IMG/VR virus record: IMGVR_UViG_3300032288_004063
Reading direction: 5' to 3' (one strand)
Source of the DNA: an uncultured virus (IMG/VR IMGVR_UViG_3300032288_004063)
Taxonomy: Duplodnaviria > Heunggongvirae > Uroviricota > Caudoviricetes
Length of the DNA: 64,000 bases
Both the position numbers and the translations under genes were made by a program. Positions 4,216 through 51,569 of this stretch are shown here, in pieces. A model generated the notes under the pieces. That model was not told the origin of the DNA, ran no database searches, and saw nothing but the letters and a program-made list of their open reading frames with translations. Numbering within the stretch: the first letter of the stretch is position 1; each line of letters opens with the position of its first letter.

Positions 4216-4794
4216 ATGAATTTAGAATTAGATAATGACAAAATAGTCATAATAAATGATTTTTTGCAAGAGAATGATTATAAAAACATAACATATAACC
4301 TCTGTAATTCTTCTTATCGATCCGAGTCCAAATCTAGTTTAAAAACAGATCCGCATGGTCATTGGGTTTTAAATTTTGTTTCTGGCGAAAACTCTACTAG
4401 TGACAATATCAAAGATATTTTTTCTTTTATAAAATATGATGATATAAAAAATGTTTGGACTTATATACAAAAAAAATATAATCTTGAAGATAAAATATTA
4501 CTAAGATGCTATTCAAATGCATATACATATGGAACTGAAGGATATCCACATACAGATTCACAAAGAAAAGATGAATGGACAATAGTATTGTTTATGAACG
4601 ATGAATGGAGCATTAATTGGGCCGGAGAGCTAGTATTTTTTTCAAATGATGAAATTATAAAAGCCGTTTTACCTAAAAAAAATACTGCAGTCATTTTTCC
4701 TTCACATATGATTCATGTAGCTCGTTCTGTTTCTAGAATTTGTTATCAAGTTAGAAGAACATTAATGTTCAAATTCAAGAATAAAAACATCTAA
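4216..4794 (+). CDS. 2OG-Fe(II) oxygenase
   Basis: HTD...WAGELVF...H...R facial triad pattern. Confidence 0.85.
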   Translation: MNLELDNDKIVIINDFLQENDYKNITYNLCNSSYRSESKSSLKTDPHGHWVLNFVSGENSTSDNIKDIFSFIKYDDIKNVWTYIQKKYNLEDKILLRCYSNAYTYGTEGYPHTDSQRKDEWTIVLFMNDEWSINWAGELVFFSNDEIIKAVLPKKNTAVIFPSHMIHVARSVSRICYQVRRTLMFKFKNKNI

Positions 4795-5384: not shown

Positions 5385-7254
5385 CCTTCTACTTTTTGTC
5401 ACTCTATTAACTACAACCATTGCACTAGCACAAGTTCTTCCTTCGGGATATATTGGTACGGTTACAAATAATACACCGAATACCTGGCAGACCTATTCGT
5501 ACTCGTTTACACCAAATATCTCAGGAACAAACTATGTCGGTTTTGCGTTCAGACAAGATCCTGCATTCTGGACATTCGACAACGTGTCGTTAACAGAATC
5601 AGGATCTACCGTAAATCTATTGACAAACGGAGCATTCACAACTGGTGGTGCAATCAACATCACCACAAGTAATGGACCGGGAACAATTCAAGCACCAACA
5701 AACTGGGGCGTGTGGTATCAAAACGGCACGTATCCAGCAGCTGCCGGCACTTGGAACGACATCGGCGGATCACACGGCGGTGTTTGGTATGATGGAGCTG
5801 TCGGAACATTTGACGGTATCTATCAAGGAATCAGCCTACTAGCAGGCACAACATACACGATTACATTTGAAGTGTCTGGTAATCATGTAAGCAATGGTAG
5901 TTCTGTACAGCTTGGCATTTATGCTGGTCCATGTGCCGACACAACGATTGCTATTGCGTCATGTACAATACCAAGCTCAGCTGGATTCACTACATTAGCA
6001 ACACCAGCAGAAGGTGCATCTGCAGGCAATCCTACACCAACTATTGTAAGTCAAGTTGCTGGAACACCAATCGTTTCAGAATCATCAAGCCGTGGTACTA
6101 CGACAACTACTGTGACAAATACAAGAGGAACAACAGCTTATGTTCCAACAACTACATTCACAGGCACAAGACAAGACCCCACACTGACAGTAAATCGCAA
6201 CATCACTACAGTTGCAACAACACCGATCACCACAGTAACAACGCACACAACACCTATCACAGTAGTAACAAGCACAACACCAACTACAATTCAAACATGG
6301 AGTGATGGATCTACTACGACTGTAAACGGAACAGCAACTACTTCAACAACAGTTGTAAATGAAATATTGACAGGAACTTCTGTAGCAAATGAAGTGATAA
6401 CAACACAGGACAATCAGCGTTTCACAACAAGAATTGACCAGCTATCAAAACTTGACAAAATTAGCACTCTTCAAAATGAAAATTCACTAGCTGATCCTCT
6501 AGCAAGAAACAAAGCATCTGGCAACAAGATCACAACAAGAGGTCCTGTAAACAAGGATTCTCAAGTATATGTGACAGGCTATTCTCTTCGTTCTGGTACC
6601 AAAGACACATATAGCTACACGACAAATGTTTTTGGTATTGGATATGAACAGAAATACAGCGATTCATTATTGCTTGGCGCTCAGTTCAATGGCGCAGTTA
6701 CAGATCTAAGTGGTGATGCATCGTCTGGAGAACTAAGAAAGTATTCTTTGGACTTCTTTGCATTGAAAGTTGAAGATGATTGGATTCTAAAGACTAACTT
6801 TGGTATGGCCTACAACGAATTTGAAACATCACACTTCATGCGTGGTTTAAATCTATTGAACACAGCATCTACAAAAGGTCATGATACTTGGTTTGTAAAT
6901 AGACTATACACACCAGATATGTATGGATTTAGACCATTTGCTGGTCTAAAATTGGAATACGATTATAGAAAAAGTGTATTTGAAACTGGTCCAACTCTTA
7001 CTGCGGTAAGACATTCGGGTAGAAGTGACTTTGAAGTCACTGGTCATGGCGGTATTAGATTTGAACAGGATATCGTTGAAGACTTGACTGGTGTAATTGA
7101 AGGTTTGATTGAGACAAATAAGACAAAGACAGCTTTTGCTGGATTCTCTTATGCCATTGATCAAAACTCTTCTATCATGCTAAAGTATGCAATACAAGAG
7201 AAAGAAAGCGTGGTAAATAACATTATCGGAGCACAGATAAGGATAATGTTCTAA
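5353..7254 (+). CDS. autotransporter-like outer-membrane protein (signal peptide, beta-sandwich passenger, Thr-rich stalk, beta-barrel)
   Basis: signal peptide ending ALA; Thr-rich linker; ~250 aa amphipathic beta C-terminus ending in Phe. Confidence 0.75.
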   Translation: MQTKTRRILNSLLLFVTLLTTTIALAQVLPSGYIGTVTNNTPNTWQTYSYSFTPNISGTNYVGFAFRQDPAFWTFDNVSLTESGSTVNLLTNGAFTTGGAINITTSNGPGTIQAPTNWGVWYQNGTYPAAAGTWNDIGGSHGGVWYDGAVGTFDGIYQGISLLAGTTYTITFEVSGNHVSNGSSVQLGIYAGPCADTTIAIASCTIPSSAGFTTLATPAEGASAGNPTPTIVSQVAGTPIVSESSSRGTTTTTVTNTRGTTAYVPTTTFTGTRQDPTLTVNRNITTVATTPITTVTTHTTPITVVTSTTPTTIQTWSDGSTTTVNGTATTSTTVVNEILTGTSVANEVITTQDNQRFTTRIDQLSKLDKISTLQNENSLADPLARNKASGNKITTRGPVNKDSQVYVTGYSLRSGTKDTYSYTTNVFGIGYEQKYSDSLLLGAQFNGAVTDLSGDASSGELRKYSLDFFALKVEDDWILKTNFGMAYNEFETSHFMRGLNLLNTASTKGHDTWFVNRLYTPDMYGFRPFAGLKLEYDYRKSVFETGPTLTAVRHSGRSDFEVTGHGGIRFEQDIVEDLTGVIEGLIETNKTKTAFAGFSYAIDQNSSIMLKYAIQEKESVVNNIIGAQIRIMF

Positions 7255-7663: not shown

Positions 7664-9715
7664 TTACTTTGAAGTAGCACGATACACACCGTCCCAATCA
7701 GCGGGTGGTGGATTCTTGATGTAATCTTCGCAACGTTCAATCATCATCGAATAGTAGTTCTTCATTCCACCATTGAATGATGTCATGAGTTTTTCACAAG
7801 ATAACATTGCTCGCGTAAAGTTCTTTGAGCGATAATCGTCCAACATCATGTTGTGCATCTCACGAAATGGTGCATAGTTCAAGAATTCCATTTCTCTATT
7901 TGTACCAATCACGGTATAGATGTTGACGCCTTGTTTCTTGCCCTTGACTGCAATTGTGTCAAGTTCAATGACAAAGTATTCATCCGCGACATACTCTGCT
8001 GTCTTTGAACCAATGACTAGTTTGACTCCGTATGGTTTGCTTTGTCCTTCAAGACGACTAGCAAGGTTGACAGCATCACCGAGGCAAGTATAATCGAAAC
8101 GCTGATCGCTTCCCATATTCCCAACAACAACCATACCAGTATTGATACCAAGACCCATGCCGAAAGGAGGAACGCCTTCAGCTGCAATGCTTCTGTTGAA
8201 TTCATCTAGATCTCCTAACATGCTTAGAGCTGTTTTGACTGCATTCTTGGCGTGCTGCTTATCATCAAGCGGAGCATTCCAAAATGCCATTTGTGCATCA
8301 CCAATATACTTATCAAGCGTTCCTTCATTCTCAAGAATCTTTGCTGTCATCGCTGTCATGTAGCGATTCATGATCTGAGTTAGTCCCTGAACATTGTCGC
8401 CATAGTGTTCACTAATCGATGTGAATCCACGAACGTCAGTAAACATGATTGACAATTCTCTACTGTCACCACCAAGCTTCAATAGCTCTGGATTCTTCTG
8501 TAGCTTTTCCACGAGTGCCTTTGAAAGATAGGACTGAAACTGCTTCTTGATTTGTTGTTTTAGTCTAAACTCTCTTGCAAAGTTATTGAAGACTAGCCAT
8601 GCGAATACTAGAGTAATTGTAAATAAAGGAAATGAGTAATCAAATAGAATATTCATTTCGTACATATAGAAGCAAAATCCAACGATTCCTGCGGAAATTG
8701 CGGCAAAGAAAGGAATTGTTTGCCAAATCTTCAATCTTGGAACAAGCACTATGAACAACAATCCAATCAATGTCAATGTCAATATCTCGACAAAGTCCGC
8801 ATAATCAAGACGAGTCAAGCTATCACCATTGACCAGAGTTGATATCATGGCGGCTTGAACTTCAGCAATATTCTTCAATCCATATGGCGTTGGAACATTT
8901 GTTGCAAGACCTTCAGCAGATATTGTTAGAATGACTACCTTATTTTCTATGTCATCCATGTGATAGATAAAACGACGATCAAATTCCTTGTTGTACTTGA
9001 TCCACACTCTTGCATTTGAGTCAGTTTGAATTGTCTCAAATTGCGGAATGCGAACAGATTCGACACCGTTCACTCCAACTTTCATTTGATAGCTTGGATC
9101 ACTAGTCAATGCACGAATGACTTCCAATGATAGTGTTGGATATAGTTCCTTGTCAATTTGAACAACCATTGGCATACGTCGCACAACGCCGTCTATTTCA
9201 CCAGATGCGGCAAGTACACCAACACCAGCTGCCTTGTCCTCAAATATCTTTAGAGGACGAACGATACCCAAAAAACGTTGTAGGAAACTATCTGGATTTT
9301 GTCCAACTACAGAAATTCCACGAGGAGATCCTTCAACTTTTGATGCTTTATTTGATGGCGCTTGTGCTATGACAACACCCTCTAATGCATTTGCTAGATC
9401 AATATCTTTTCCAAAACGATCTGGTTCCGAGAAGATTATGGGCATGACAATCATTGCTGGCTTGAACGACTTGATCATTTCAAGCACAAATGCAACCTTG
9501 TCGCGCGGCCACGGCCATTGCCCTTGATTCTCAATATCATCGTCCGTGATTTCTATGATTGAGATTTGATCGCTTGGCGTTTGTCCCTTTTGTACTTGAT
9601 AATAATCGAATGTTTTTAGTCGAGCCGTTTCAACCAACCATCCATCTTGGAATCTCAAAGATATTAGACCAATCAAGACAAGAAGAACAACCTTCCAAGA
9701 TGCAAAGAACTTCAT
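7664..9715 (-). CDS. CHASE2-domain class III adenylate cyclase
   Basis: GQWPWPR and DGVVRR (CHASE2), 3 TMs, MFTDVRGFT, DKYIGDA, GDAVNLASRLE; Lys/Asp residues indicate ATP specificity. Confidence 0.93.
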   Translation of the reverse strand: MKFFASWKVVLLVLIGLISLRFQDGWLVETARLKTFDYYQVQKGQTPSDQISIIEITDDDIENQGQWPWPRDKVAFVLEMIKSFKPAMIVMPIIFSEPDRFGKDIDLANALEGVVIAQAPSNKASKVEGSPRGISVVGQNPDSFLQRFLGIVRPLKIFEDKAAGVGVLAASGEIDGVVRRMPMVVQIDKELYPTLSLEVIRALTSDPSYQMKVGVNGVESVRIPQFETIQTDSNARVWIKYNKEFDRRFIYHMDDIENKVVILTISAEGLATNVPTPYGLKNIAEVQAAMISTLVNGDSLTRLDYADFVEILTLTLIGLLFIVLVPRLKIWQTIPFFAAISAGIVGFCFYMYEMNILFDYSFPLFTITLVFAWLVFNNFAREFRLKQQIKKQFQSYLSKALVEKLQKNPELLKLGGDSRELSIMFTDVRGFTSISEHYGDNVQGLTQIMNRYMTAMTAKILENEGTLDKYIGDAQMAFWNAPLDDKQHAKNAVKTALSMLGDLDEFNRSIAAEGVPPFGMGLGINTGMVVVGNMGSDQRFDYTCLGDAVNLASRLEGQSKPYGVKLVIGSKTAEYVADEYFVIELDTIAVKGKKQGVNIYTVIGTNREMEFLNYAPFREMHNMMLDDYRSKNFTRAMLSCEKLMTSFNGGMKNYYSMMIERCEDYIKNPPPADWDGVYRATSK

Positions 9716-10740
9716 TTTTGTATTATCCTTATTTTGTTCACATACGGGGAATCGGCATCATTTATGCCAAATGAAACTGTAGTATCACCTTGCGTGATAC
9801 TAATTGAATAGTGCTTTTCTTTTTCTATGTTCATTTGAACTTCATTTTCGACATTACGAATAAGCTTGACTTTTGTTTGCGTGAATATAGTATATATTTG
9901 CGTAGATTGATTGAGTCCCGCAACCTTACCCACGGATGATGCATCATATTCATTGAGGACATTTTGTAGTAGATCTATGTCCAAAAGATTGACATCCAAA
10001 TCATTGAATTTCAAATTATCCTTGTCGAGATTAGTTGTATCCAGTTCTCGGAATTCAAGAAGATCAATTCGCAATGGATCATTTTTATTATGCTCTTCAT
10101 CCTTGTTTTTTTCTGGTTTGGAAACTATCAATAGATTGTTTATTTGACTCTCGGTAAGATTCAATATTGTTGGTTGAGCAGGCTTTCCTTCACTTGATGC
10201 AACATATGTAGATTGAAATGCCTTGTTTAGTATGACTTGACCTGCATCAGATTCTACCTTAATCTCTCCCACGCTCCCATCACGATTTGGTAGAAGAATG
10301 ACAAGACTTTGACCTATCTCATCTACTGTCATGCTAAATGATGTTCCACGAACTCCTATCGTGGCTACAGGTGTTTGAATGTTTATGTTTTCATTGTTGT
10401 TTTTGGCAATCGCTCCAGATGCATATCGCACCGTACCAAGAGCAATTTTCATTGACATCTTGCCAGCACCACGATTTGGATCAAAGACATATTCATCGAT
10501 GACCAACTTGCTATTTTCCGTAATTGCTACTTGTGTATCATCTTTGAACTTGATATTTGCTCTTGACCGAGCCGTGCGAATTGTGTCGAGGGATTCTACT
10601 TTGCTGCCCAAAGAAACATCAACTGACGAGCCAGCTTTTTTATCTACTTGTGCTGGACCCGTCAGTTGAATAAATTCACCAATCGGATTGGCTTTTGCTT
10701 CAGTCAGACTGAGTAATAGTAGCAGTAAGATTATTGCCAT
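9712..10740 (-). CDS. FecR-domain periplasmic protein
   Basis: signal peptide; DTIRT, F.DDT, TPVATIGVRGTSF. Confidence 0.85.
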   Translation of the reverse strand: MAIILLLLLLSLTEAKANPIGEFIQLTGPAQVDKKAGSSVDVSLGSKVESLDTIRTARSRANIKFKDDTQVAITENSKLVIDEYVFDPNRGAGKMSMKIALGTVRYASGAIAKNNNENINIQTPVATIGVRGTSFSMTVDEIGQSLVILLPNRDGSVGEIKVESDAGQVILNKAFQSTYVASSEGKPAQPTILNLTESQINNLLIVSKPEKNKDEEHNKNDPLRIDLLEFRELDTTNLDKDNLKFNDLDVNLLDIDLLQNVLNEYDASSVGKVAGLNQSTQIYTIFTQTKVKLIRNVENEVQMNIEKEKHYSISITQGDTTVSFGINDADSPYVNKIRIIQK

Positions 10741-11368
10741 TTGTCGTTACGTTCATGACCTTATTGATGCTACCCGATTGAGAATATGTAAAGTTTCCGC
10801 CATTTCCGGTATGCGTAATTGTAGCGGTGTGTGGAATCACAGGAGCTCCTGTTTGCGTGAAGCTTGTAGTGTTTGTATCGCCTGTAATATTCAATGTCAG
10901 CGTACCCGAAGCGGAATTCATTAACAATGTAGTTTGATTGCTATCTCCTGTTACGGTTGCATCTATTATCACATTGCTTTTCTTTATTGTTATGTCTGTA
11001 GTATTATTGTCGCCAATATTGTAGAACTTGGCATTGACGGAAGCACACGCATCTGTATTTCCTGCGTTGCACTTGAACTCCATGGTATTTGTACTACCCT
11101 CTTGTTTCAAGTCTACAGTATTGTTATTACCATTCAATTCAAAATTGAGTGTGTTTACTGCACCGTCTTGCATGATCGTTATATCGTTGTTGTCGCCATT
11201 GATTATTGCTGGCGTCGTTGATGAATTGACCTGATTCAATGCGCCATTTTGTTGCGTGATTGAAAGCGTCAATGCATCACCAAGTTGATCGATATAGATC
11301 TTGCTATCTGTTGCACTAGCGATGTTTGATAACAAAACCATGAACAATGCTGCCCATAGTTTCTTCAT
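10700..11368 (-). CDS. curlin-like repeat protein
   Basis: signal peptide; repeated Q.G..N / G..N beta-arch motifs; downstream of csgG. Confidence 0.7.
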   Translation of the reverse strand: MKKLWAALFMVLLSNIASATDSKIYIDQLGDALTLSITQQNGALNQVNSSTTPAIINGDNNDITIMQDGAVNTLNFELNGNNNTVDLKQEGSTNTMEFKCNAGNTDACASVNAKFYNIGDNNTTDITIKKSNVIIDATVTGDSNQTTLLMNSASGTLTLNITGDTNTTSFTQTGAPVIPHTATITHTGNGGNFTYSQSGSINKVMNVTTNGNNLTATITQSD

Positions 11369-12141
11369 TTATTTCCTTCCTTTCTTTTCCAAAGACCTTT
11401 TCTTTCGCCTTCTCTTATAGTCTCTATTATGCTTTGTTCTATCGCGGCCTTGACTGCGTAGTTTGTTGGTTCATTTACAGCAAGACCAGTTTCTATTTCA
11501 AATGCTCTTGTTCCCATGTCTACAAACTTTAGCGCATCGACTGATGTCTTTACGCTAAGAATTGTCTTTTGTATGGCTACCGATGTTAAAACTTCACCAG
11601 TTTGCACCGATATCAATCTTAGAAATACTGTAATGATGTCCTGTCTATATTGTGTAGAAACACCAACGCCAAGATATCTTGCACCAATTCCACCAGATGT
11701 TATGTTTGTATCATAGCTAATAATGCCGCCTTCAGCAATCAATCCTGCAAATAAAAGCGGACGAAGATCTTTTGCGCGTTCACCTTCAAATGCTTCACGA
11801 GCCGTACGAATAAGTTGGCGCTCCTTGATTAGATTGTCAAGACCAACACGCTCAACGACACGAAACCATTTTCCTTTACCAACATCTTGAAATCCCTTGA
11901 TCAACCAAGATTCAGCACCTTGTGTTACTGCCGTACTTAGATGAGCTACAGTTTCGCTTGGCTTTCTTTGACCTGTTCTGTCTAGAAATGAATATACAGC
12001 AACTATTAGCGGTTGACCATCTATTTCTTCAATCATATCAAACATGTTTTGTGCTTGAGATGGCATTGATTCTGGTTCAGTTACTTGCAATGGAGTCGTG
12101 CATCCAGCAAGCATTAGTAATGCGAGAATGTATTTTTTCAT
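11365..12141 (-). CDS. csgG: curli secretion channel CsgG
   Basis: lipobox LAGC; DRTGQRKP, STAVTQG, WFRVVER.GLDNLIKERQLIR, EGGIISYD. Confidence 0.95.
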   Translation of the reverse strand: MKKYILALLMLAGCTTPLQVTEPESMPSQAQNMFDMIEEIDGQPLIVAVYSFLDRTGQRKPSETVAHLSTAVTQGAESWLIKGFQDVGKGKWFRVVERVGLDNLIKERQLIRTAREAFEGERAKDLRPLLFAGLIAEGGIISYDTNITSGGIGARYLGVGVSTQYRQDIITVFLRLISVQTGEVLTSVAIQKTILSVKTSVDALKFVDMGTRAFEIETGLAVNEPTNYAVKAAIEQSIIETIREGERKGLWKRKEGNK

Positions 12142-12584
12142 CAGAACTTGAACTCGCCAATTGGAACTTCTACCGTCGTAGTATTTCCATTTGATTGAAC
12201 TATCGAAAGTGTTACTGCATCCGCTGTCTTGACAAAGGATATGGTATTTCCTTCGATAACGACGGAACCAGAATTGCTGGCATTTTCACCAAACATTGTA
12301 TCAACAAGTTGTTTGCTCAATTGAGCATAGATTCTACCTTCTACGTTGAGTAGAAACTTCGATAGATTTGAATTGTCTATCTTTCGCTGCTCGGCTTGTC
12401 TTCTTGCTTCTTCTTCAGCTTTTATCTTTTCGCGACGTTGAAATTCCATTGTTTCTATAGTTAGAACGTGCGAAGAATATCCTACACCACTAAATGAAGG
12501 ACTTTTGAAGTTGAATTGAAGATTATCGGCTAAAGCATTACCAGAAATCAACAAAAACATGACAAAGAAAGGTGCTTTTCTCAT
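12141..12584 (-). CDS. csgF: curli assembly factor CsgF
   Basis: signal peptide, F.FKSPSFSG motif, position directly upstream of csgG. Confidence 0.85.
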   Translation of the reverse strand: MRKAPFFVMFLLISGNALADNLQFNFKSPSFSGVGYSSHVLTIETMEFQRREKIKAEEEARRQAEQRKIDNSNLSKFLLNVEGRIYAQLSKQLVDTMFGENASNSGSVVIEGNTISFVKTADAVTLSIVQSNGNTTTVEVPIGEFKF

Positions 12585-35724: not shown

Positions 35725-35784
35725 CTGCGTAGGGACTTTGAATCCCTTCACACCAAGACAAGCCCTCCTCGCGAGGGCTTTTTT
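35712..35784 (+). terminator. intrinsic terminator with mutually exclusive antiterminator
   Basis: AAGCCCTC/GAGGGCTT+T-run; GGGTTTGTCTTG pairs with CAAGACAAGCCC. Confidence 0.75.
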
Positions 35785-35785
35785 G

Positions 35786-35814
35786 TTGACAAAGTGATGG
35801 ATACCAGATAGTAT
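35786..35814 (+). promoter_or_regulatory. sigma70-type promoter for the ncRNA/tRNA cluster
   Basis: TTGACA-17bp-TAGTAT. Confidence 0.65.
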
Positions 35815-35934
35815 CTGATATCTGATAAACGCAACGAGGGCGTGACCTGCACTAGATTAGGTCGAACGGTCGGAACCGAGGATGAAATCTGCGGCGACAA
35901 CGCAGAGAGTAAAATTCGGGAAACAAGTATCAAG

Positions 35935-36282
35935 TGATACTTGATTGTGTGCATCAAACGATCCGATGGCCGTGGCCCAGTAGGGCGGACTCGGCGGTTG
36001 TTATCGAATGATGCACACAATCAAGTATCATAGAAAAAGAAGTGATATTTGATTGTGTGCATTAAACGAAGCACCGTGGCCCAGTAGGGCGGTCAGTGGA
36101 CTGGCGTTTGTTATCGAATGATGCACACAATCAAGTATCATAGAAAAAGAAGTGATGCTTGATTGTGTGCATGGAAGGCGTCAGGCCACGCCGATATAAT
36201 GGAGAATAGCTCTGGGAAATTTGCGAAAGCCTCGGAGTTGGGTGAGTTCAATTCTCATCAAAATGCACACAATCAAGTATCA
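35935..36282 (+). ncRNA. three tandem long-stem-enclosed RNA cassettes (35935-36030, 36043-36140, 36153-36282)
   Basis: 20-22 bp inverted repeats TGATACTTGATTGTGTGCAT/ATGCACACAATCAAGTATCA with G-U-compatible variants. Confidence 0.65.
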
Positions 36283-36285
36283 TAA

Positions 36286-36360
36286 CGCAGAGTGGAGCAG
36301 CAGCAGCTCGTCTGGCTCATACCCAGAAGGCCACAGGTGCAAGTCCTGTCTCTGCAACCA
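36286..36360 (+). tRNA. tRNA-fMet(CAT)
   Basis: C1:A72 mismatch, CAT anticodon, CCA. Confidence 0.85.
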
Positions 36361-36511
36361 ATTGTGCTAGGCTCTATGGTAGTCTAGCACATAAGGGTGT
36401 TATTCGATGAAGCCTAGCCAGGTGGAGAATAGCTAGTTGGGTTGCGCGAATCCAACGAAGTCGCAAATGAGCGGTGGCACCGACATTTGTGGAGCCCTTT
36501 CGCAATTACAT

Positions 36512-37108: not shown

Positions 37109-37184
37109 GGGGCATTAGCTCAATCAGGAGAGCGCCTGCTTTGCAAGCAGGAGGCAGTCGGGGCGGAACCGACATGCTCCACCA
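37109..37184 (+). tRNA. tRNA-Ala(TGC), atypical T-loop
   Basis: G3:U70, T-loop GGCGGAA, CCA. Confidence 0.9.
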
Positions 37185-39329: not shown

Positions 39330-39426
39330 GTGACGTTTAGTGTAGTGGTAGCACGGAAAGTCCGAGACACAGTAATGTGGAGTAGGCACCCAATGTCTAG
39401 CAATGGTTCGATTCCATTAGCGTCAC
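39330..39426 (+). ncRNA. tRNA-like RNA with expanded non-anticodon centre, no CCA
   Basis: acceptor GTGACGTT/AGCGTCAC, canonical D arm and T arm. Confidence 0.6.
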
Positions 39427-39605: not shown

Positions 39606-39681
39606 GGGGGTATAGCTCAGTTAGTAGAGCAATCGGCCGATAACCGATAGGTCGCAGGGGCAGAACCTGCTACCCCTACCA
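39606..39681 (+). tRNA. tRNA-Ile(GAT), atypical T-loop and C33
   Basis: loop CCGATAA, T-loop GGCAGAA, CCA. Confidence 0.88.
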
Positions 39682-39685
39682 TTGC

Positions 39686-39885
39686 TACCATTTGAAAGCA
39701 CACTGACGGATCGAGTTGAACATCCAGCTATAGCAACCTTGAGGTTCGAGTCCTCTCTCAATCTGGAAAGATTGTGTTGGTTTCGGTAACTGTTGCTGGA
39801 AGTTGAATTCGATTCGGTCCCCTGGCAGGGGCGAAAGATATCTGTGCCAGCAGATAATTCGATATCAGTGTGCCTTCAAATGGTA
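39686..39885 (+). ncRNA. long-stem-enclosed RNA A (second family)
   Basis: TACCATTTGAAAGCACACTGA/TCAGTGTGCCTTCAAATGGTA; internal T-arm GAGG-TTCGAGT-CCTC. Confidence 0.65.
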
Positions 39886-39902: not shown

Positions 39903-40044
39903 TATCATTTGTAAGCACATTCGTTGCTGAGTCGCAATTCAGTTGCTGAGTCGCTATCAGTGACTGAGTCGCAATCAGTACGGAATATAGGGAGTCATGA
40001 CCCTAGTAGGTTCAAATCCTACCCGAATGTGCTTTCAAATGGTA
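39903..40044 (+). ncRNA. long-stem-enclosed RNA B (second family)
   Basis: TATCATTTGTAAGCACATTCG/CGAATGTGCTTTCAAATGGTA; three CTGA-GTCGC.A-TCAG hairpins; T-arm. Confidence 0.65.
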
Positions 40045-51166: not shown

Positions 51167-51197
51167 CATTACCAGAACTATTTCGTATCATAGGATC

Positions 51198-51569
51198 ATG
51201 AATATCATATATGTGCGAAATAGTTCTGGTAAGAAAAAGCCTTCCAACTCCAAGAAGCTGGAAGCAATTCGCCGTGAACATCAGAAGTTTCTGGAATCGG
51301 TTGGCTATACCGGCCGAGCACGTTTATGTACAACAAAACCAAAGCTTGTTGTACAAAGCGCACCAGAGCCATATAGCACCAAATCTCTACAGGAGATGGT
51401 TGGTCCATGTCCCAAGCGTGATATTTGGGAACGCACCAGAAATGAGTCTGACGAAGTCAAGGAGGCAATTCGCCAGAAGGCAGCTCGCACGGCGCCTATT
51501 TGGAATAAGGGTGGTTTGATGTATATTACTGATGACCAAGATTTGACAACCTTGAGTAAAAAGGTTTAG
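51198..51569 (+). CDS. hypothetical protein
   Basis: AP.WNKGG.MY motif seen in T4-like phages; promoter at 51163. Confidence 0.7.
   Translation: MNIIYVRNSSGKKKPSNSKKLEAIRREHQKFLESVGYTGRARLCTTKPKLVVQSAPEPYSTKSLQEMVGPCPKRDIWERTRNESDEVKEAIRQKAARTAPIWNKGGLMYITDDQDLTTLSKKV

Follow-up and report, generated by a model that had tools for sequence, protein, structure and literature searches.

Stem-closed RNA units with exchangeable cargoes at the head of a tRNA operon in an uncultured T4-like phage

The closest described systems are the stable RNAs encoded in the tRNA clusters of phages T5 and T4. In the T5 record (NC_005859), RNAI, RNAIII, RNAIV, RNA2H and RNAX are annotated as stable RNAs with unknown functions, and RNA1 and RNA2 as tRNA-like stable RNAs. 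RNAIII and RNAIV are not tRNAs themselves but lie within the tRNA cluster, on the same strand as the tRNAs, and each consists of about 100 nt folding into three hairpins and a terminal closing stem. As annotated, the closing stems comprise 12 bp (RNAIII) and 8 bp (RNAIV) in the predicted folds; with the flanks included they reach 20 bp and 13 + 8 bp, respectively, so that the annotated mature ends fall inside the stems. The two RNAs with their precursor stems of about 20 bp lie at 4270–4405 and 6822–6960 of T5 (L159), on the minus strand, and the RNAIII stem makes use of the CCA end of RNAI and of the first bases of tRNA-His. RNA1 and RNA2 of T5, like RNA C (species 1) and RNA D (species 2) of T4, are non-decoding RNAs whose closing stems measure 3–8 bp in the annotated mature folds. 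The last element of RNA2 and of RNA C is a T-arm, adjacent to the closing stem. No long stalks were found in the tRNA clusters of T4 and S-CBWM1.

Three further systems are relevant for comparison. In rRNA operons, the leader and trailer flanks pair into a helix of about two turns around the RNA, which is cut by RNase III. Bacterial Y RNAs such as YrlA, which are bound by Rsr/Ro, combine a long stem made of the two RNA ends with a tRNA-like domain. According to PMC5737381, GOLLD and ROOL are structured RNAs that often occur in the vicinity of tRNAs and in prophages and may share transcripts with tRNAs; the length given there for ROOL is 581 nt. Both are much larger than the units described below, and their own Rfam models gave no match here.

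The locus considered here lies in a stretch of 64,000 nucleotides, referred to as the window, from an uncultured virus (IMG/VR IMGVR_UViG_3300032288_004063). The source phage is T4-like, and the genes of the window include a T4-type RNase H, a SegE-like endonuclease, ThyX and ribonucleotide reductase. There is no cultured model phage, since the nearest cultured relatives are cyanomyoviruses with only about 48% protein identity. CsgG and CsgF homologues, a weak curlin-repeat match, a FecR-like protein and a CHASE2-cyclase are found at 7664–12584, and a curli-type secretion set of this kind is unusual for a phage. ARAGORN called 33 tRNAs in the window, + strand throughout, with 31 in a main cluster and 2 near 53.5 kb. 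An Rfam scan of the whole window at gathering thresholds gave 32 matches, all of them tRNAs; three tRNAs called by the Rfam model (37109–37181, 39331–39426 and 39606–39678) are absent from the ARAGORN list. The first tRNA of the operon, tRNA-Met, has a C1·A72 mismatch at the top of its acceptor stem, which is a hallmark of bacterial initiator tRNA. The gap of 150 nt separating it from tRNA-Ser (36361–36511; 1978–2125 in the relative L149) is a conserved structured region, with at least two helices showing compensatory differences between the window and L149.

An earlier note, made from the letters of the sequence alone, had described a tandem array of three stem-closed units at the head of this tRNA operon. 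The sequence agrees with it on the three intervals (35935–36030, 36043–36140 and 36153–36282), and the position in the operon is also right, because a promoter follows a terminator upstream of the array and tRNA-Met starts downstream of it. The units are thus placed between a conserved promoter and leader on one side and tRNA-Met on the other, with the following features:

35760–35780, + strand: intrinsic terminator of the upstream gene block, a stem-loop with a T run, also present in relatives
35786–35814, + strand: sigma-70-like promoter of the tRNA operon (TTGACA, 17-nt spacer, TAGTAT), 10 of 12 consensus matches
35821–35934, + strand: conserved leader of about 115 nt, including a hairpin at 35889–35905
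35921–35932, + strand: partial copy of the 3' arm at the end of the leader, found as a repeat match
35935–36030, + strand: unit 1, cargo type A, with a 22-bp stem (35935–35956 with 36009–36030)
36031–36042, + strand: linker TAGAAAAAGAAG, 12 nt
36043–36140, + strand: unit 2, cargo type A (subtype with an extra hairpin), with U-G pairs in the stem
36141–36152, + strand: second copy of linker TAGAAAAAGAAG, 12 nt
36153–36282, + strand: unit 3, cargo type B, with a 20-bp stem
36177–36192, + strand: GC-rich hairpin of unit 3
36193–36210, + strand: hairpin of unit 3 with a GG loop
36210–36237, + strand: variable hairpin of unit 3 with a hypervariable tip, the loops having 7 to 18 nt among relatives
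36241–36259, + strand: T-arm of unit 3
36286–36360, + strand: tRNA-Met, first tRNA of the operon, 3 nt past the stem of the last unit

The promoter scan is not significant by itself (2 sites against 1.8 expected), and the site is conserved in relatives. Over the leader, identity to the window is 158/158 in L001 and 133–142 of about 158 positions in distant relatives. The arm pattern occurs six times in the 64,000 bases, three times as 5' arm and three times as reverse-complement 3' arm, against a mean of 0.05 expected, and none of 100 shuffled sequences reached six occurrences. The 3' arms of the three units are identical, with one transition each in the 5' arms of units 2 and 3. That all three units carry the same closing stem of 20–22 bp, as proposed, is borne out by both the sequence and the folds, and the linker described as identical is indeed present in two copies. 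It also occurs in one relative (L119), and in another (L117) it begins just before the end of the contig. The remnant 3' arm reported ahead of unit 1 corresponds to the partial copy at the end of the leader. In relatives this partial arm covaries with the stem type, and it persists in a locus without a following unit (L158); it may have been left behind by a deletion and kept similar through gene conversion, or it may truly serve as an alternative partner for pairing.

Folded as + strand RNA, units 1, 2 and 3 have predicted energies of −58.9, −46.8 and −55.7 kcal/mol (z = −8.9, −6.8 and −6.5), with the arms forming a continuous closing stem and none of 200 shuffles folding as well. The − strand folds are weaker (−54.2, −37.6 and −40.8 kcal/mol), and the two substitutions become mismatches in them. 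In the minimum free energy fold of the whole leader and array, the 5' arm of unit 2 pairs with the 3' arm of unit 3. Closure unit by unit would therefore depend on the order of folding, and no unique fold is claimed for the array. When the whole window was scanned for inverted repeats that were near-perfect, 16 bp or longer and 30–260 nt apart, the only hits were the three units of the array, a further two in the same tRNA cluster and a 17-bp hairpin unrelated to them; each of 20 shuffled controls gave 0 or 1 hit. A perfect 17-bp hairpin with a 30-nt loop is located at 51169–51232, and is kept in the relative L149 (11785–11849) with a partly different stem sequence.

The two additional units are both confined to the tRNA cluster, as are the three of the array, and follow the same design with other stems:

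39686–39885, + strand: unit with an unrelated 21-bp stem (one A·C mismatch) and a T-arm-like hairpin in the cargo, found by the inverted-repeat scan
39903–40044, + strand: unit of the same design with a 21-bp stem, three tandem 4-bp hairpins and a T-arm

The first of these is predicted to fold as a rod-like RNA of 200 nt (z = −8.9). The cargo of the second consists of three tandem copies of about 18 nt, with a 7-nt loop that is identical in two of them and has one additional U in the first; it looks like a triple anticodon-arm mimic. The tRNA-Ala called by ARAGORN at 39936–40030, inside this unit, is the only tRNA-Ala call of the window and is probably spurious; the Rfam tRNA model does not call it. 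Across the five units of the window, the helix encloses 56–158 nt. A complete relative of 197 kb (G002) has three units with three different 22-bp stems.

The earlier note had also pointed out that the substitutions in the 5' arms give G-U pairs only on the + strand, which it took as a sign of selection on RNA structure. For both transitions, in units 2 and 3, the + strand has G-U pairs where the − strand has mismatches, and the pattern holds more widely: all six one-sided changes in the window stem type lead to G-U pairs on the + strand, and no pair is broken among the variants compared. When 12 stem variants belonging to three stem types were lined up on their conserved inner block, 240 of the 250 cells were Watson-Crick pairs, with 6 G-U, 2 A·C and 2 C·C. 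At least two Watson-Crick pair types occur at 15 of the 22 stem positions, so that compensatory changes, whose absence from homologues would have spoken for simple duplication of a palindrome, are present across stem types. This covariation stems from comparisons between types; for the same cargo type on the window stem, the sequences are about 90% identical and show no double compensatory change. The A·C mismatches carried by the two other stem types correspond to G-U pairs on the opposite strand, which counts against a strict + strand reading. Taken at the level of sequence comparison, these patterns support the view that the stem is an RNA helix under selection. Its length is conserved and its sequence is not, since two more units in the window and two more in G002 have stems that are unrelated in sequence and nevertheless within 20–25 bp. 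Among relatives, the inner stem is conserved and the outer stem is variable.

The cargoes of units 1 and 2 are related to each other, as had been noticed: they share an identical 19-mer (35970–35988 and 36074–36092) and the same 3' end. Across five variants of cargo A, the core is invariant except for one position which is either C or U. The variants fall into two subtypes, the second of which has an extra hairpin that reads CAG/CUG in unit 2 and CAA/UUG in L117, i.e. a G-C pair replaced by an A-U pair. The cargo of unit 3 is unrelated to the other two and carries the tRNA T-arm mimic attributed to it. The 5-bp stem of this T-arm is that of the T-arm of a tRNA-Ser in the window, and the loop differs at 2 of 7 positions; no T-arm with a tRNA-type loop was found in units 1 and 2. 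A 12-mer is common to unit 3 (36200–36211) and to the gap between tRNA-Met and tRNA-Ser (36423–36434).

Homologues of cargo B were found in G002, where the unit precedes tRNA-Val and therefore occupies another position in the operon, and in L158, which has a homologous unit on the same stem. In both, all four hairpins are kept, with compensatory changes in the stem and in two of the hairpins, and 7 of the 39 predicted pairs are changed on both sides in an alignment of five sequences. In the L158 homologue, the T-arm directly adjoins the stem. No unit matched the Rfam tRNA model (RF00005), even at E-values of up to 10. According to these predicted structures, cargo B is tRNA-shaped and non-decoding without being a tRNA, and cargo A has a fold different from that of cargo B.

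Relatives of the array were collected by searching public viral and metagenome contigs with the arm. A complete unit was found in three viral loci and in 5 of the 16 metagenome loci (L114, L117, L119, L120 and L124, which have both arms), at the same site in all cases, and a search with the cargo A core added a sixth relative (L130). The 11 metagenome loci with a match to a single arm were set aside as chance or unresolved. One of them, L115, has three forward arm-like matches and no reverse arm, and may belong to a different repeat family. A scan of the viral contigs with a 14-mer was too loose, giving at least 108 loci; both arms were present in 4 of 111, all on contigs already found. For the cargo A core, L131 and all 21 matches in bacterial genomes were regarded as chance in GC-rich DNA, as none has flanking stems.

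The arrangement of the units differs between these relatives. Against [A][A][B] in the window, a single [B] is found in four loci and a single [A] in one, and L119 has [B][A], the reverse order, joined by the same linker. L117 has a type A unit ahead of its partial linker. The flanks are nearly the same throughout: compared with the window, L001, L119 and L120 have 157–158 of 158 identical positions in the leader and 224–227 of 229 in the downstream stretch. Near-identical flanks thus carry [B], [A] or [B][A], and the modularity which had been read from the window by itself is borne out more strongly than a reader of one sequence could know. More distant relatives, found by a search with the tRNA-Met core, share the promoter, the leader and tRNA-Met, and their units hold cargoes of two other types, C and D. 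The stems of these units have 22–25 bp, the inner 8 bp matching the window stem and the outer part being different yet complementary. At the head of the operon, L158, a relative with 74% identity in a neighbouring phosphatase, lacks units altogether, which indicates that the units are dispensable. Judged from these alignments, units are shown to have been gained, lost and reordered between phages. An otherwise different, AT-rich phage contig (L002/L150, record G003) likewise has this type B unit together with the end of the leader and tRNA-Met, which suggests that the three may move between phages as a block.

As for the identity of the units, the earlier statement that no named family matches them stands as far as Rfam is concerned: permissive scans of the array region, of the second pair of units and of the units of the relative returned no family for any unit, and the sub-threshold look-alikes among miRNA and snoRNA hairpin models were rejected. 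What that statement missed is an unnamed precedent, the stable RNAs of the T5 and T4 tRNA clusters. A blastn search of the array region against 50,697 phage records matched in the tRNA-Met part alone and showed no homology to the T5 or T4 RNAs. A literature search, probably not reaching the older papers on T5 and T4, brought up no account of such a design. A CRISPR-like array was rejected, as cargoes 1 and 2 are homologous to each other and a scan of 50 ORFs gave no cas domain. The longest cargo complements in the window have 10–12 nt and are no longer than those of shuffled cargoes, which leaves a guide or antisense role without support there. The original interpretation is thus supported in part, for its modularity and for selection on an RNA helix, and finds no support for guide-like RNAs.

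Compared with the systems described at the outset, the units share most with T5 RNAIII and RNAIV, which lie likewise on the tRNA strand of a tRNA cluster without being tRNAs and have a precursor stem of about 20 bp around a multi-hairpin body; RNAIII adjoins the next tRNA, as unit 3 does. Unlike the window stems, those of T5 differ from one another and overlap the neighbouring RNAs, and T5 has neither a tandem array of identical arms and linker nor any known cassette shuffling. RNA1, RNA2, RNA C and RNA D are likewise non-decoding RNAs of phage tRNA clusters, with sequences unrelated to the window units and much shorter stems; the T-arm beside the closing stem in RNA2 and RNA C resembles that of cargo B. 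The processing stems of rRNA are, as here, conserved as pairing and not as sequence, but they enclose rRNAs of 1.5–3 kb, whereas the helix of the window units is perfect, encloses far shorter cargoes within a tRNA operon and is a putative substrate for cleavage. The units differ from YrlA in having no Rfam match and no bulged Ro-binding helix, and their stem enters the tRNA-like fold elsewhere. The 50 window ORFs that were scanned contain no TROVE gene, and neither do four related records. By analogy, then, the units probably belong to the kind already known from the T5 and T4 tRNA clusters; the novel features are that one stem serves unrelated cargoes, that the units stand in tandem, and that cassette turnover is documented.

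The reading we favour, with a probability of roughly 0.6, is that the units are small structured RNAs which are co-transcribed with the tRNAs, marked by the stem and excised from the tRNA precursor, the stem being a mark defined by its length and the units behaving as recombination cassettes. They would make up the 5' part of the polycistronic tRNA transcript that starts at the operon promoter. Sequence and comparison show each cargo as a compact multi-hairpin domain whose ends are joined by the perfect helix of 20–22 bp. The helix would act as a sequence-independent, length-defined mark for excision, within which a host double-strand RNase, most likely RNase III, would cut. A perfect helix of about two turns is a classic substrate of that enzyme, and the window units have what an RNase III stalk calls for, namely about 20 bp or more of double-stranded RNA formed by the flanks and conserved as pairing. 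The enzymes would have to come from the host, since the phage lineage lacks them: neither RNase III nor a dsRNA-binding domain was found in any of four records or in the one complete genome, and Y RNA/Rsr, RtcB, a CCA-adding enzyme, RNase III and dsRBD proteins are absent from the complete relative. Cleavage by RNase P at tRNA-Met, 3 nt downstream, would trim the last unit to a tail of 3 nt. The products would be tRNA-sized RNAs which retain the conserved inner stem, the outer part being discarded, and this fits the observation that the inner stem is conserved and the outer one variable. As the arms are identical, the same products would be obtained whichever arms pair. Identical arms and linker would also provide homology for the recombination by which units are exchanged between co-infecting phages.

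Our leading guess for the released RNAs is that they may act in trans on host proteins involved in tRNA handling or defence. A more specific form, in which the stem would be a portable excision handle and the cargoes interchangeable trans-acting decoys for host tRNA-directed defence nucleases or tRNA-handling enzymes, we consider speculative and unlikely as it stands.

Of the other explanations, the one that survives best is that the units act in cis as spacers, their stems and hairpins organising the folding of the transcript, insulating the tRNAs and guiding or protecting the precursor, so that the excised pieces would have no function. The position of the array at a processing site, 3 nt ahead of tRNA-Met, is what such spacers would have, and they could well be dispensable, variable in number and filled with cargo types which are mutually unrelated. 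A mere spacer, however, does not need the conservation observed in the cargoes: cargo B keeps its four hairpins and its T-arm through compensatory change at two operon positions, and the 19-mer core of cargo A is invariant in both window units, with a single C/U position varying across the five variants. Moreover, by the annotation of the record, the counterparts in T5 are stable RNAs that accumulate. This explanation is thus disfavoured, and we hold it to be rather improbable.

Selfish palindromic DNA elements, either MITE-like or spread by homing or recombination, could also have colonised the tRNA cluster, in which case the RNA folds would be incidental. The arms do look like terminal inverted repeats, and the polymorphism in presence and order, the partial arm at the end of the leader, the occurrence of B-family units at different operon sites, the homing endonuclease genes nearby and the same unit with tRNA-Met in an otherwise different phage would all be in line with mobile DNA. 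Yet there is no evident transposase, and the arms lack a clear target-site duplication at their borders, for which reason a MITE-like element was rejected as an identity for the units. The copies in the window are moreover restricted to the tRNA cluster, and the arms of different units are unrelated in sequence and equal in length. The G-U changes on the sense strand, the compensatory changes in the cargoes and the T-arm motifs present on the + strand only point to selection at the RNA level, which makes this origin very unlikely in our judgement. Decayed tRNA genes with extended acceptor stems, i.e. pseudogenes on their way out, are suggested by the T-arm in unit 3 and in the two units near 39.7–40.0 kb, one of which was called a tRNA by ARAGORN, but are equally hard to credit, given that types A, C and D have no tRNA features, that no unit reaches E = 10 with the Rfam tRNA model, and that perfect stems of 20–22 bp with compensatory changes are not expected from decay.

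The preferred reading, excision of stem-marked RNAs from the tRNA precursor, places the locus among the stable RNAs of T4 and T5, which are annotated without function in current genome records, and the window shows the T5/T4-type design in an unusually legible form. With four or more cargo types and several stem sequences, each stem being about two helical turns long, the pattern suggests that the stem is a generic handle and that the cargoes provide accessory, exchangeable functions. If the cargoes were indeed decoys, the cassettes would correspond, at the RNA level, to the anti-defence gene islands with fast turnover that phages carry, and the stable RNAs of T4 and T5 would be given a function.
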